The notes beneath the pieces are model-generated. The model did no database searches and had not been told where the DNA came from. It saw only the letters and a program-made list of their open reading frames with translations. Both the position numbers and the translations under genes were made by a program. Of a DNA stretch of 64,000 nucleotides, positions 39,905 to 44,054 are shown one piece after another. The stretch's first letter is position 1. The number at the start of each line of letters is the position of its first letter. The DNA lies in the NCBI GenBank assembly GCA_045597005.1, contig JAZODJ010000012.1, positions 18,919 through 82,918 of the forward strand. The letters run 5' to 3'. Origin of the DNA: Alphaproteobacteria bacterium (GTDB lineage: Bacteria > Pseudomonadota > Alphaproteobacteria > RF32 > CAG-239).

Positions 39905-40576
39905 TTATCTGTGACCTAAAAGTCCTTCTGAAATATGTCGATTTATATTTATAAAGCTATCTAACATTTTATAATCAACATTATCTAAATCTTGTCCGAT
40001 TTTTATCGTATTTTTTGCAATATAATCCGCTAATTTGAGCAAATTATTCTTAGTATCATCCGGCAAACTGCTTCTGTTCTTGGACATCAAAGTCCTAATC
40101 ATTACCCACAAACGTTGATTATTATCCAAAGCTTCAACCAACTTATTTTTATCCTTTGATTTTGAAGCTTCTGACAAATCAAGTCCGCTTTTAGCTAAGT
40201 AATATGCTTCTTGCTGCGCCAAATTAGCATTTACTGATTCCATCAATCCTTCTGAAATTTGTCTGTTAATATTAGCTAATGACTGAAAACATGCATCACT
40301 CATATTAACACCGTTTGCAATAGTAACATGTTCAACGTACTTAGACAACTTAGTCAAATTATCTTTAATATTTTGCGGCAAAAAATTATTTGATTTTTTA
40401 ACTGATGCTTCAATAGTAACCCACATTTTCATATTTTCATCCAAAACCAACAATTTATATCCGTCATCTTTAGACTTAGCAGTCTCAAGATAATTAGCAT
40501 AATTTTGTAAAAGTTCAGCCTCTTTACTGGCTCCGTCAATTTGATCTCTTATTTCATCTAACATATTTTTATCCAT
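39905..40576 (-). CDS. flaF: flagellar regulator FlaF, tandem two-domain form
   Basis: two copies of EA..L ... LD.N..(L/M)W ... LP...K.NL.KL..Y ... NINR.ISEGL. Confidence 0.8.
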   Translation of the reverse strand: MDKNMLDEIRDQIDGASKEAELLQNYANYLETAKSKDDGYKLLVLDENMKMWVTIEASVKKSNNFLPQNIKDNLTKLSKYVEHVTIANGVNMSDACFQSLANINRQISEGLMESVNANLAQQEAYYLAKSGLDLSEASKSKDKNKLVEALDNNQRLWVMIRTLMSKNRSSLPDDTKNNLLKLADYIAKNTIKIGQDLDNVDYKMLDSFININRHISEGLLGHR

Positions 40577-40629
40577 ATTTATAATAGGTTATAATCAAAA
40601 AAACTTCCTAAACTCTTTTTGCAAACTAA

Positions 40630-40825
40630 ATAAAGAAAAAGGACTGAAAATTACATCTCTGACTATTGGGGAATAAGTGTCAAATTCAACTTACCAGCCC
40701 TTTTCCTGTTAAGTTTAACACAATCGGTTTCTTTCGATTGTAGTTACTTTTTTTCAAGAAAAAATTGGGGAGATTTTTCCAAGAAAAAAGTTCATCACAT
40801 AATAATAGGGGAACTCATTATAATA
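40630..40825 (-). ncRNA. putative multi-hairpin RNA with three UCCCC loops
   Basis: four hairpins; G.U pairs support the minus strand; ends in a U-rich tract (see findings). Confidence 0.55.
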
Positions 40826-40852
40826 TAGTCACTCTATGAAAAAACATATCAT

Positions 40853-41614
40853 CTAAAACGGAGCAACTATATCCAAAACCTGTCTTCCGTAGCGAGGTTG
40901 CTGAACATCTGAAATAACCCCTTGTCCACCATACGAAACTCGTAATTCTGCTATTTTACTGGACTCAATGCTATTATCAGATGAAATATCAGCTCTTCTG
41001 ATAATTCCTCGCATATAAAGTTGACGAACCTCATAACTGACTCTTATTTCTTGCGTTCCTTCAATAACTAAATTACCATTAGGCAAAACCTGTGTAACCA
41101 CCGCCGCAAAAGTAAGATCTATACTCTCTTTTCTATCAATCTTACCATCACCTGCTATTTCTCTGTTTGACGAAATATCAACCAAGTTATTAGAGTCATA
41201 CCCCTCCGGCAAAATTTTTCCTAAATATTTTTCATACCCGAATACTGACGATATACCCAAAGAATCTTTATTATCATCACGATTTTGTTCCATTTCATTT
41301 TCCATCAACGCCGTATCCTTCGCAGACACCTTAACCGTAATAATATCACCTACTTTTCCGGCTCGTTGATCTTTAAAGAAACCTACAGCTCCCGGACTCC
41401 ACAAAGAATTAGCTGCATGTTTTTGCTCTTGAACTACCGGCATAGGCATTGATACCGGCTCATATCCCTTTACTTCAACCGGATTAGTAATCGGAGACAA
41501 TGGTGGTTCTTGCCCTACTTGACTTAATCTTCGCAACATTCCACACCCTGACAAAGATGTCGCAACCATTAAAAGAGCCACTGTTTTCACAACACTTTTA
41601 TTTACTGCTACCAT
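40853..41614 (-). CDS. flgH: flagellar L-ring protein
   Basis: lipobox LSGC, SLW, FFKDQRA..VGDI.TV, VLPNGNL.IEG, SYGGQG.ISDVQQPRYG. Confidence 0.97.
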   Translation of the reverse strand: MVAVNKSVVKTVALLMVATSLSGCGMLRRLSQVGQEPPLSPITNPVEVKGYEPVSMPMPVVQEQKHAANSLWSPGAVGFFKDQRAGKVGDIITVKVSAKDTALMENEMEQNRDDNKDSLGISSVFGYEKYLGKILPEGYDSNNLVDISSNREIAGDGKIDRKESIDLTFAAVVTQVLPNGNLVIEGTQEIRVSYEVRQLYMRGIIRRADISSDNSIESSKIAELRVSYGGQGVISDVQQPRYGRQVLDIVAPF

Positions 41615-41625
41615 TTTAACTACCC

Positions 41626-42333
41626 CTATTCCACCACTATCAAAACCATATTTTTATCAACTACTTTACCTACAACTTCTTTTCCGCTTTTATTATTAAC
41701 AAGAGTTATGATTTGTTCTTTAGATCCATCTTCCAAAGCTTCCATTTTAGAAGTAATCTGCAATCCTTTATTTTGATATACAACTGTTGCCATCTGTCCT
41801 TTTTTTACCAAAACCTCGTCTCTTATATCACGTAACGATACAAGCTTATCAGCCTTTAACAAACGAACAACCTGCTTACCGACTAATTCATCTTTATCCG
41901 TAACAACATCATCTCTTAAACGCCCCTCTCTGACCATCTGAGATATCAAATCACTTTCTTTTATAATCTGATCCTTTTCAATATCTGTCTCAGGAACCCA
42001 AACCTTGTGCAAAATAAAATATTTCCCTATAATTTCAGTTTGTTTAAGCAAAACACCATCAGCAAAAATTTCCACTCCGGCCGTAAATTTATTTATTTTT
42101 TCTTCCGTAAACAAATTAGTTACCAATATTTTCATAATTTTTGCATTATCTGCCTCAAAATTTGTCTCCCCGCCAAAAAATTCCAGATCAACATCATCTC
42201 CCAAACCTTTTTCAGAAAACTCTCTTTTGATAGCTTTTGACAAATCATCCGCATCAACCGTAGCAGCTTCGGAATATGAAACTCCACCCAACATCTGCAA
42301 TAAAACCAAAAGCACCAATGACAAATAACGCAT
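41626..42333 (-). CDS. flgA: flagellar P-ring formation chaperone
   Basis: signal peptide, SAF-like region, LVKKGQ ... ALEDG ... I...N.KS.K; lies between flgG and flgH. Confidence 0.9.
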   Translation of the reverse strand: MRYLSLVLLVLLQMLGGVSYSEAATVDADDLSKAIKREFSEKGLGDDVDLEFFGGETNFEADNAKIMKILVTNLFTEEKINKFTAGVEIFADGVLLKQTEIIGKYFILHKVWVPETDIEKDQIIKESDLISQMVREGRLRDDVVTDKDELVGKQVVRLLKADKLVSLRDIRDEVLVKKGQMATVVYQNKGLQITSKMEALEDGSKEQIITLVNNKSGKEVVGKVVDKNMVLIVVE

Positions 42334-42346
42334 CTTATTACCAACC

Positions 42347-43135
42347 TTACTTCATTTGATTAATTGTACTAAGCATCTGATCTGACGTAGTAATAACTTT
42401 AGAATTCATTTCATATGCACGCTGAGCTGAAATTAATTCTGTGATTTCACTTACAGGATTAACATTTGAAGTATTTAAATACCCCTGCAAAATAGAACCA
42501 AAACCCTCACTATCCGGATTATCAACAACCGGGGCACCTGATGCAGCCGTTTCTAAAAACAAATTATCTCCGATAGCTTCCAATCCGGCTTCATTTACAA
42601 AAGTTGCCAATTCAAGCTGTCCGACATTAATCTCATCTGTTTCGCCGTCTTGTTTAATCCAAACCTCACCAGAGCTGTTTACATACACTTCCGTTGCATC
42701 TTCAGGAATCGTTATTTCCGGTTGAACAACATAACCGTCATGAGTAACTATTGTACCATCACCATTTCTTTGAAATGCACCATCTCTTGTATATGCTGTT
42801 CCCTTTCCTTCAGGCAATTCAATCGTAAAATAGCCTCTGCCTCTGATCGCTAAGTCCAAATCATTTCCGGTAGAGGTTAAAGAACCGCCTTCAGTAATAC
42901 GATAAATAGCAGATGTTCTGACACCAAGTCCCATTTGAATACCTGCCGGAACAATTGTATTATCAGCTGTTGATGCCGACCCCGGTCTGACTATATTCTG
43001 ATACAATAAATCACTAAATTCAGCTCTTCTTTTGGTATATGCTGTCGTATTCATATTTGCTATATTGTTAGAAATTGTATCAACATTTGTTTGTTGAGCA
43101 AGCATACCTGTTGCACCGATTTGTAAAGATCTCAT
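42347..43135 (-). CDS. flgG: flagellar distal rod protein
   Basis: GATGMLAQQ.NVD.ISNNIANMNT, SNVN...E..ELI.AQRAYEMNSKVI. Confidence 0.98.
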   Translation of the reverse strand: MRSLQIGATGMLAQQTNVDTISNNIANMNTTAYTKRRAEFSDLLYQNIVRPGSASTADNTIVPAGIQMGLGVRTSAIYRITEGGSLTSTGNDLDLAIRGRGYFTIELPEGKGTAYTRDGAFQRNGDGTIVTHDGYVVQPEITIPEDATEVYVNSSGEVWIKQDGETDEINVGQLELATFVNEAGLEAIGDNLFLETAASGAPVVDNPDSEGFGSILQGYLNTSNVNPVSEITELISAQRAYEMNSKVITTSDQMLSTINQMK

Positions 43136-43156
43136 AACTTTATTCTCCCATTAATC

Positions 43157-43900
43157 TTAAGCTAATTCTGCATAAACAGAAATTGTATTTGATAAACGAT
43201 CATGTTCCTCATCAATCATCTGTTGAACATATTCATAACTGCGTTGTATCTGAACCAAATTTGTCATTTCAGTAATGGCATTAACATTAGATGATTCAAT
43301 CATTCCTTGTGCTATTCTGACATTATCTGAACCATAACTGATTGCATTTCCTTCAACATTTTCAAACAAAACGCCGTTTAATTTTAATAATTTTTGATTA
43401 TCGGCAAATTTTGCAATCTTTAATCTGCCGATAAACCCATTCTCGGTAATAACATCACCGCTTTCTGAAATTGTAATTTCTGTTTCACCCGGAGCAAAAA
43501 ATAATGGAGTATTATTTTCACTCAAAACCAATTCACCGGCTGTAGTAGCTAATGCACCATCTTCATTGAGAGTAAATTGTCCTTTACGAGTATATTTTTC
43601 ACCATCTGCAGTCTCAATACAAAAGAAACCGTTTCCTTTAATTGCCAAATCAAATGTATTTCCGGTTTCTTTAAAAGCACCTTCATTAAAATTTTGAAAA
43701 TCCGCAAAATCTTGAGTAAAAAACAACGGTTCGGAAGCAATACCAACAGCATCTTTCGTTTGATTTATATATGTAGTAAAAAGAGCATTATCCTGTTTAT
43801 ATCCAGATGTATTCATATTAGCCATATTATTAGAAACAATATTCATTTGTTTCCAAAGAGCCATCTGACGCGACAATGCTATATATGATGTATTATCCAT
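43157..43900 (-). CDS. flgF: flagellar proximal rod protein
   Basis: MDNTSYIALSRQMAL, NNMANMNT.GYK, YTRKGQF, ESSNVN. Confidence 0.95.
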   Translation of the reverse strand: MDNTSYIALSRQMALWKQMNIVSNNMANMNTSGYKQDNALFTTYINQTKDAVGIASEPLFFTQDFADFQNFNEGAFKETGNTFDLAIKGNGFFCIETADGEKYTRKGQFTLNEDGALATTAGELVLSENNTPLFFAPGETEITISESGDVITENGFIGRLKIAKFADNQKLLKLNGVLFENVEGNAISYGSDNVRIAQGMIESSNVNAITEMTNLVQIQRSYEYVQQMIDEEHDRLSNTISVYAELA

Positions 43901-43967
43901 AAAATCTCCCCTAAATAAAAACTATTCCCCAATAGTTTTGGATAATTTAATTCGTTGTCAATATATA

Positions 43968-43984
43968 TGCAAAACCCGTGCCAA
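43968..43984 (-). promoter_or_regulatory. sigma54 (-24/-12) promoter of flgFGAH
   Basis: TTGGCACGGGTTTTGCA matches TGGCACG-N4-TTGCW, ~70 bp upstream of flgF. Confidence 0.9.
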
Positions 43985-44000
43985 TTTTTATAACCACATA

Positions 44001-44036
44001 AAAAAACAGCCTTCTTTTTTTAGAAGGCTGTTTTTC
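44001..44036 (-). terminator. intrinsic terminator after ssb
   Basis: AAAAAACAGCCTTCT ... AGAAGGCTGTTTTT. Confidence 0.8.
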
Positions 44037-44054
44037 GATATATGATTATTAAAA

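Follow-up and report, generated by a model that had tools for sequence, protein, structure and literature searches.

What is encoded in the 276-nt intergenic region that separates flgH from a flaF-like open reading frame (ORF) in the alphaproteobacterial DNA studied here, a stretch of 64,000 nt that we call the window, and how might it relate to the flagellar genes beside it? Our analyses showed that the region encodes a conserved, previously uncatalogued structured RNA at window positions 40622-40814 on the minus strand, directly 3' of flgH. The minus-strand intergenic fold reached -60.5 kcal/mol (z -3.36, 0 of 200 shuffles as good), whereas the plus strand gave -44.4 kcal/mol (z -0.76, 37 of 200 shuffles as good); the fold is strand-specific. 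A DNA match to the element was found in 54 of 55 other genomes of the genus and was strongest over the 5' 65 nt. An earlier model-made interpretation of the letters alone (the sequence-only reading) had proposed a structured minus-strand RNA after flgH, and this proposal is borne out. The element has no counterpart in Rfam 15 either, the covariance models of which gave no match inside 40577-40852 at E values up to 10; in the whole window, only two tRNAs passed the Rfam gathering scores. By BLAST, the intergenic region is single copy in its own genome. A repeat or mobile element was rejected, other BLAST matches being only 14-30 nt long with E values of at least 0.0155. A second UUCCCC pair, at C12:95301-95333 outside the window, was rejected too and is an ordinary terminator stem.

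The element comprises a motif predicted to be single-stranded, M1, followed by the hairpins H2, H3 and H4 (Table 1). All three hairpins were predicted in the window and in 30/30 genus loci from single-sequence folds, and 3' of H2 the minimum free energy folds held exactly two top-level domains, H3 and H4, in each of the 30. A further hairpin of the sequence-only reading, H1 (AUAAUG/UAUUAU), did not survive, since it is predicted only in the window's clade and its 5' arm is not conserved; its C-motif did. In M1, the stretch TATTATTATGT is invariant in 30/30 sequences, and the genus form UUCCCY-UAUUAUUAUGU holds 11 invariant bases (UUCCCC-UAUUAUUAUGU in the window). The H2 loop AAUCUCCCCA is invariant, as are the stretch AAATCTCCCCA in 30/30 sequences and the loop region AAAUCUCCCCA across genus loci. 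These 11-nt invariant blocks exceed the conservation of the flanking proteins, which are 69-83% identical. At the top of H4, T.CCCC is invariant or nearly so, and U.CCCC(AA) is kept unpaired; the hairpin is flanked by an A-tract and the U-rich tail. The UCCCC(A) motifs displayed number three to five, some lineages adding more, and UCCCCA occurs four or five times in a more distant clade of the genus.

Covariation supported the same structure. A plain MAFFT alignment with RNAalifold recovered only H2 (12 pairs) because the sequences of H3 and H4 differ too much, and we therefore used a model-guided alignment. The covariance model combined the H2/H3/H4 structure with two sequences, those of the window and of its closest relative, and 31 sequences were aligned to it; L011, L026 and L066, which nearly duplicate L010, L025 and L021, were omitted, as were L069-L077, where the match was weak or absent. 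In this alignment, 91.4% of cells pair, compared with 43-63% in slid-partner controls, and compensatory changes on both sides occur at 47 of 59 pairs. The covariation score was 0.48 versus 0.07-0.14, and 0/500 column shuffles came up to these figures. Covariation extends to every pair of H3 and H4: H3, the sequence of which itself varies, shows both-side changes at 8/8 pairs in the 31 sequences, and H4 helices 4-7 show compensatory change at 34/34. In the inner helix of H2, 98.8% of cells are paired, with a G.U/A-U alternation that fits the minus strand only. Where the sequence-only reading had counted five strand-specific G.U pairs, we count nine among the 59 model pairs. The C-rich motifs sit in unpaired columns of this supported model.

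What these exposed motifs might contact is suggested by the leader of flgF, the first gene of the operon that ends in flgH. Two long complementarities to this leader had been noted in the sequence-only reading, and both are exact: 40662-40675 (UAUUCCCCAAUAGU) matches the flgF leader hairpin at 43923-43936 in 14/14 positions, and 40767-40777 (AAAAUCUCCCC) matches the flgF Shine-Dalgarno (SD) sequence at 43901-43911 in 11/11. The 14-mer and the 11-mer each have two matches in the window, one in the element and one, as reverse complement, in the leader, compared with 0.03 expected, and 0/100 shuffles reached two. At full length, however, they are not conserved but peculiar to the species and its nearest relatives. 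The conserved complementary core is only 8-9 nt long, namely UUCCCCAA / UCUCCCCAA versus UUGGGGAA / UUGGGGAGA. We hence take the 14/14 and 11/11 matches as lineage peculiarities built on this core, because cognate pairs in the gut alphaproteobacterial family match no better than others. Family-wide, the flgF leader consists of a sigma54 promoter, an AUUAUCC box and UUGGGGAGAAUAUAAUG, and its SD complements the invariant H2 loop UCUCCCCAA over 9 nt. A perfect match of at least 6 nt is kept in 47/47 operons, with a mean of 8.8 nt. As a side observation within this leader, the AUUAUCC box could pair at 6/7 positions with GGAGAAU of the SD and so form an SD-sequestering stem.

The combination extends across the family. 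A model search gave matches in 31/151 sampled genomes, which belong to 9/23 genera, and on inspection 15 of 18 loci outside the genus lie directly after flgH, placing the element in 6/23 sampled genera. Matches in g3, g6 and g8 (L165, L170, L174) were rejected as spurious; they are not beside flgH, and these genera show no FlgH. FlgH was found in 78/151 genomes and 15/23 genera, and the eight genera without it are those without a true RNA match. When 20 whole operons from 13 flagellated genera were read by inspection, all 20 carried the C-motif RNA downstream of flgH, usually with a C4-loop hairpin and a U tract at its end. It is present after flgH in g9 and g17 though flaF is not the next gene there; in g13 it is reduced to M1, H2 and a terminator with a UUCCCCUAA loop, and g10 has UUUCCCCAA in its H3 loop as well. 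In the 3' regions of 47 operons, C4 runs number 126 and G4 runs 7. Within 45 nt of the start, the flgF leader contains GGGG in 47/47 operons and CCCC in 0/47, so that all 47 operons, from the 13 flagellated genera, combine C-runs after flgH with a GGGG leader before flgF. Locus L082 was not included, and the cognate-pairing comparisons lack L028, L036 and L215, where the contig ends before flgF. In other alphaproteobacterial metagenome-assembled genomes (MAGs; L073-L075, FlgH 57-62% identical), a single terminator hairpin lies about 100 nt after flgH and is followed by flaF; its loop, CCUCCUCCCUCCC, is cuckoo-like.

Candidate targets were ranked in a crude set of 1360 ORF 5' regions of the window's own genome with three C-motif segments. 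The flgF leader came first of 1360 both by summed duplex energy (-53.6; mean -27.2, sd 6.5) and by longest perfect match (14 nt), and third by single best duplex energy. A perfect match of at least 8 nt to the RNA occurs in 31/1360 5' regions, six of which belong to known flagellar genes or operons. For this reason the 8/8 match to the flgH ribosome-binding site (RBS), also raised in the sequence-only reading, is real but weak evidence alone; across the genus, 23/30 loci have GGGG no more than 28 nt from the flgH start, often as a AAUAGUUGGGGAGCUAUU hairpin. In fliF, UAGAUUGGGGAAUCUAUG is found in 30/30 genus loci, a second GGGGAA lies about 65 nt upstream across the genus, and in the own genome UAGAUU-GGGG-AAUCUA abuts the AUG. 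Five clean sigma54 promoters precede flgF, a flgB-like gene (followed by flgC-fliE), flgI, fliK-flgD-flgE and a flgE-like gene, and the flgF, flgB-like and flgI leaders carry G4 motifs in a hairpin loop, the SD or both. GGGGA-type SDs occur in 30 genes, six of them flagellar: fliF, flgF, fliE, the flgB-like gene, flgI and a 150-aa gene in the flgI operon. An OmpA-family protein among the 30 may be MotB. Unpaired C-motifs that complement target RBSs, with the core in 47/47 operons and at the fliF and flgH RBSs, are the feature that defines anti-SD RNAs with C-rich loops, and on this point, complementarity of the C-motifs to the G4 of the flgF leader and the flgH RBS, the sequence-only reading was right.

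Three further leaders deserve mention in their own right. The fliF leaders (L261-L290) form a conserved structured element of AUAAA-N-GGGGAA, a covarying hairpin and the invariant UAGAUUGGGGAAUCUAUG in 30/30 loci. The flgI leader of the own genome (C25:952-1014, outside the window) has AUAUCCCCGAGA near its 5' end and a GGGG-loop SD hairpin, a possible cis anti-SD arrangement; CCCC is found in only 2/30 genus flgI leaders. In the dnaA 5' region (C11:+37358, also outside the window), AAAUUGGGGAG perfectly complements the H2 loop over 11 nt and is the second-longest match among the 1360 5' regions.

A similar arrangement exists in a second, distant group. In the 200 nt after flgH of 65 other alphaproteobacterial loci, CTCCC was counted 63 times versus 8 for GGGAG, and GCTCCCC 26 times versus 0 for GGGGAGC. 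All loci with several motifs are of Hyphomicrobiales type (Bosea, Bradyrhizobium, Pseudolabrys, Beijerinckiaceae, Enterovirga and others), and GCUCCCC there lies in hairpin loops after flgH, the terminator loop included. Rfam gave no relevant match in the flgH 3' regions of 14 Hyphomicrobiales loci at E values up to 0.1. The flg-Rhizobiales RNA motif (Rfam RF01736; Weinberg et al. 2010, PMC2864571) lies on the flgH strand, 2.6 kb upstream of that gene, in 4/5 such genomes, in three of them over the cut-off. It is the flgF leader of the same operon, in which a sigma54 promoter is followed by two GGGAG-loop hairpins and a GGGGAGC SD, and bona fide members (79.9-94 bits) precede flgF of flgH-containing operons. 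In five genomes with plain flgH terminators, RF01736 was over the cut-off in none, and one leader read there is without a G4 SD. As an order-level search was thin (6/151 genomes, two over the cut-off), the named flgH loci were used in its place. A 5' G-motif and a 3' C-motif are thus combined in one operon in two distant alphaproteobacterial groups. The window's own flgF leader shares the first hairpin, the SD, the gene context and the sigma54 promoter of RF01736, without the second hairpin and with a weak score; the alignment covers the GGG-loop hairpin and the GGGGAGAU SD.

In 18 Hyphomicrobiales operons, the terminator loop complements the SD or the leader loop over 7-12 nt, and the flanks change by lineage: GGGGAGC-U goes with A-GCUCCCC, GGGGAGCG-UC with GA-CGCUCCCC, and GGGGAGCG-AG with CU-CGCUCCCC. 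Cognate matches in these operons averaged 9.50 nt versus 8.65 nt for non-cognate ones (36/20000 permutations as high), and 9.18 versus 8.33 nt among 11 representatives (295/20000); the test lacks L115, where the start is not resolved and no leader motif was seen. The co-variation of loops and leader that the sequence-only reading had put forward as a check was not seen in the gut family and is modest in Hyphomicrobiales, where it is suggestive of a co-change of leader and 3' flank.

From the positions and complementarity of these motifs, the most likely role of the element would be that of a C-loop anti-SD regulator of flagellar basal-body mRNAs. We propose, with moderate confidence, a 3'-untranslated-region (3'UTR) riboregulator that would act on flgF, fliF, flgB and flgH, either in trans or through contact between the 5' and 3' ends. 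The sigma54-driven flgF-flgG-flgA-flgH mRNA encodes rod and L-ring proteins, and its untranslated 3' end would fold into the conserved domain and offer its motifs at three sites, i.e., in single-stranded M1, in the loop of the long A/U hairpin H2 and at the top of the terminator hairpin H4. These UCCCC(A) motifs could pair with (U)UGGGGA(A/G) in hairpin loops or SDs, with the operon's own flgF leader as the strongest partner and fliF, flgB, flgH and fliE as others. Pairing would occlude the RBS and lower translation; we assume repression because the C-motifs cover the SD, although activation by opening of the leader structure might also occur. The acting form could be a stable fragment derived from the 3'UTR that works in trans, in the manner of the small RNAs (sRNAs) CJnc230/FlmE and FlaX and the E. 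coli UTR-derived sRNAs discussed below, or the contact might form between the ends of one transcript, and the outcome would be to restrain or time the early synthesis of the basal body by negative feedback or timing control. By inspection, flgH is directly followed by a long stem and a U-rich tail, and on the strength of this stem and U tract H4 may terminate transcription; the RNA would then share the terminator of its mRNA, a trait of 3'UTR-derived sRNAs. The actual pairing of the two RNAs, its repressive direction and its action in trans or in cis are what we infer from these sequence features.

Several observations weigh against such a regulator or narrow what can be attributed to it. In the gut family, cognate duplex energies were no better than non-cognate ones, with 4925/5000 permutations at least as good for M1, 4939/5000 for H2 and 1450/5000 for H4, and the longest match was 8.79 nt in cognate versus 8.56 nt in cross-genus pairs. 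Because the flanks do not co-evolve there, pairing depends on two short conserved cores, and complementarity exists between any C-rich loop and any G-rich SD. The cognate signal in Hyphomicrobiales comes from few independent lineages and is inflated by kinship, and the window's flgF leader reaches 20.7 bits against RF01736, for which the gathering score is 55 (E 0.025 on 261 nt). In the naive duplex ranking, the flgF leader is joined in the top 30, among flagellar genes, only by one unknown C29 gene and the 150-aa gene of the flgI operon. About 20 of the 30 genes with GGGGA-type SDs are non-flagellar (e.g., glgP, virB4, bamA, dnaA, murD and rplI), the sigma54 leaders of the fliK-flgD-flgE and flgE-like operons have no G4, and the flgI leader has it in only 16/30 genus loci. 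The covariation figures are generous because the alignment was fitted to the model and the sequences are related, although the 30/30 independent single-sequence folds give the same domains. The terminator role of H4 is not established either: a simple terminator scan did not call it, because the loop rule of the scan is 3-8 nt, and a scripted rule, the result of which was not used, called 21/47 and picked the wrong hairpins. Sequencing runs that contain the DNA comprised 18 of DNA type and two metatranscriptomes (0.05 share); the latter covered short flgH, flgG and flgF pieces only, at a depth of about 2, with 40577-40852 uncovered, and these contigs are uninformative on the presence or absence of a transcript there.

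The same data can be read in other ways. The C-rich loops might be protein sites, bound for instance by a post-transcriptional flagellar regulator like FlbT/FlaF or by a KH-type C-binding protein, which would make the RNA a protein sponge or a protein-controlled 3'UTR stability element and the G4 leaders an independent feature, e.g., strong or standby ribosome sites. A short motif repeated in several loops does occur in protein-titrating RNAs, a protein that recognises the invariant core would leave no leader-flank co-evolution, as in the gut family, flaF comes next in most genera, and the genome has an FlbT gene (C3:236-598). Protein sites nevertheless leave unexplained why the cores are exact reverse complements including their UU..AA flanks and why flanks change by lineage in Hyphomicrobiales; the element moreover persists without downstream flaF in g9 and g17, and we know of no C-loop-binding flagellar protein in Alphaproteobacteria. 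We consider this explanation unlikely. Less probable still, in our view, is a cis-acting flaF leader, in which H4 would be a conditional terminator or attenuator, read-through would set flaF expression and the C-motifs would serve alternative folds. The sequence-only reading had noted the placement by flaF, and the element indeed lies directly upstream of flaF in 30/30 genus loci, H4 is terminator-like and flaF has no obvious SD. But the element travels with flgH, as g9 and g17 show and as do the other genes that follow flgH in Hyphomicrobiales, no alternative, anti-terminator fold is conserved beside the H3 and H4 domains of the 30/30 single-sequence folds, and a conserved box between H4 and flaF, together with variable spacing, points to separate start signals for flaF.

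Intergenic DNA that is AT-rich folds readily, and 8-nt matches are common, as the 31/1360 5' regions illustrate. One could thus see here just an ordinary intrinsic terminator together with DNA-level signals such as promoter or regulator sites, its complementarity to the leader being coincidental. This is disfavoured, and we regard it as very improbable. It would account neither for 11-nt blocks that are more invariant than the neighbouring proteins nor for RNA-type covariation with G.U pairs on one strand only. The ratio of C4 to G4 runs (126 to 7), the 14-mer and 11-mer expected 0.03 times each, and the recurrence of the 5' G-motif/3' C-motif combination in GC-rich Hyphomicrobiales speak against it as well.

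The genome of the window is 1.46 Mb in 31 contigs and 100% complete; the window has a G+C content of 36%, and the close relatives are, by their record titles, MAGs of uncultured Alphaproteobacteria from the guts of animals and humans. Along the minus strand, ssb and a terminator are followed by the sigma54-type promoter, flgF, flgG, flgA, flgH, the intergenic region, the flaF-like ORF and lolE/lolD-like genes, in this order. A sigma54-type element lies upstream of flgF in 27/27 genus relatives and in 19/19 leaders from 12 other genera. The strong intrinsic terminator after ssb (43990-44050, minus strand; CAGCCUUCU...AGAAGGCUG followed by U7) gives many spurious low-score Rfam leader and sRNA matches. 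The flaF-like ORF encodes 223 aa, two stretches of which match the 113-position FlaF profile, and would thus be a double-length FlaF. The box between H4 and flaF, GTTTAG(G/A)AAGTTT, is probably outside the structured RNA and may serve flaF as a promoter or leader signal; at this position, other genera show TTTAAAAAG...GATTATA. Hfq is encoded in the genome. CsrA (PF02599) was not found in the complete genome, with controls positive in three reference genomes; this speaks against CsrA/RsmA control of the leaders, though they resemble its GGA-in-loop and SD sites.

Table 1. Positions in the window of the structured RNA, its flgF leader counterpart and the surrounding genes
Feature	Positions	Strand	Remark
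Motif M1, GUUCCCC-UAUUAUUAUGU, predicted single-stranded	40797..40814	-	unpaired in consensus model
H2, long A/U stem, loop CUCCCCA at 40766-40772	40747..40790	-	30/30 conservation
H3, hairpin CAAUCG-AAAGAAAC-CGAUUG	40721..40740	-	covariation
H4, long terminator-like hairpin	40622..40719	-	core arms 40694-40707 and 40634-40647
H4 unpaired top, UAUUCCCCAAUAGU (also given as UAUUCCCCAA)	40662-40675	-	
H4 U-rich tail	40628-40640	-	
Conserved box GUUUAGGAAGUUU between H4 and flaF	40601..40613	-	kept in most genus loci
flaF-like ORF	39905-40576	-	
Intergenic region, 276 nt, flgH to flaF-like ORF	40577-40852	-	
flgF-flgG-flgA-flgH coding block	40853..43900	-	Pfam matches
flgH	40853-41614	-	
flgA	41626-42333	-	
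flgG	42347-43135	-	
flgF	43157-43900	-	
AAUAGGGG in flgH ribosome-binding region	41623..41630	-	8/8 complementary
flgF Shine-Dalgarno region AGGGGAGAUUUU	43901..43912	-	11/11 complementary to 40767-40777
flgF leader hairpin AAAACUAUU-GGGG-AAUAGUUUU	43918..43939	-	stem covaries, GGGG(A) loop kept in genus
AUUAUCC box in flgF leader	43940..43946	-	kept in most genus and family leaders, by eye
Sigma54-type promoter of flgFGAH operon, TGGCACG-N4-TTGCA = TGGCACGGGTTTTGCA	43968..43983	-	read from sequence

To our knowledge, post-transcriptional control of early flagellar genes is little known beyond a few model bacteria and, in Alphaproteobacteria, essentially unknown beyond FlbT/FlaF control of flagellin. 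The element is a well-supported candidate for a new RNA family, with structure, covariation and spread across one bacterial family, and the similar arrangement in a second order offers a concrete candidate partner for an orphan Rfam motif. If the pairing is real, the 3' end of an operon would regulate the RBS at its own 5' end and those of sister operons. C-rich-loop anti-SD sRNAs such as RsaE and RNAIII of S. aureus, RoxS of B. subtilis and the alphaproteobacterial cuckoo/CcsR/alpha-r14 RNAs pair several C-rich loops or single strands with G-rich RBSs. They are stand-alone genes that serve metabolic or stress regulons, with the motif CCUCCUCCC or UCCC. The window element differs in its motif, UCCCCA, and no Rfam family of that class matches it at E values up to 10; membership in cuckoo/alpha-r14, i.e., tandem hairpins with CCUCCUCCC loops, is thus not indicated.

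Flagellar operons are known to give rise to sRNAs elsewhere. CJnc230/FlmE of Campylobacter jejuni lies just downstream of, and is made from, a sigma54(RpoN)-dependent flagellar structural-gene mRNA and represses translation of flagellar regulators, its targets being Cj1387c and flgM (PMC11187230). According to the parts of that paper available to us, it differs from the window element in phylum, sequence and targets, is not built of several C-loops and is not complementary to its own operon leader. FlaX of Vibrio cholerae (PMC11879080) and the sigma28 UTR-derived UhpU, MotR, FliX and FlgO of E. coli (PMC10578931) also come from UTRs of flagellar genes, base-pair with flagellar mRNAs and block 30S binding. 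As described in the available sections of these papers, they are gammaproteobacterial, associated with ProQ or Hfq and derived from late (flagellin) genes, with no likeness in sequence or structure to the window element. QfsR of Agrobacterium (Rhizobiales) pairs at the flgF, flgI, fliL, flgH and fliE cistrons of a flagellar polycistron; in the accessible part of that preprint, it is plasmid-encoded, uses a G-rich site with GAGG and raised the fluorescence of flagellar-fusion reporters (bioRxiv 10.1101/533729). The literature on flagellar UTR-derived sRNAs and on flgH, sRNAs and Bradyrhizobium, with supplementary sRNA catalogues outside its scope, yielded no description of our element.

Another of the closest known systems is flg-Rhizobiales itself, to which, in the portions of the full-text literature at hand, a table row and a methods-paper mention assign no function or partner. 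The flgF leader of the window resembles a shortened form of this motif, in which a GGG(G)A-loop hairpin is followed by a GGGGAGAU SD, after a sigma54 promoter and before basal-body genes. RF01736 would accordingly be the proposed partner of the C-loop element, not the element itself, which is possibly its missing counterpart. We tentatively suggest, as a possibility rather than an expectation, that the flg-Rhizobiales leader belongs to an RNA device made of two parts. Its counterpart would be the C-loop hairpins with which the same flgFGAH mRNA ends, kissing the G-loops and SD of the leader and either coupling the head and tail of the transcript or feeding back in trans on fliF, flgB and flgF. 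If true, this would amount to a 5'-3' UTR communication system for basal-body synthesis, kept from AT-rich gut Alphaproteobacteria to GC-rich Hyphomicrobiales. The organism of the window is uncultured, but the question is approachable in cultivable strains of the Bradyrhizobium, Bosea and Rhodopseudomonas type. As a 3'UTR anti-SD riboregulator, the element would work along already known lines; its sequence family is a new candidate.

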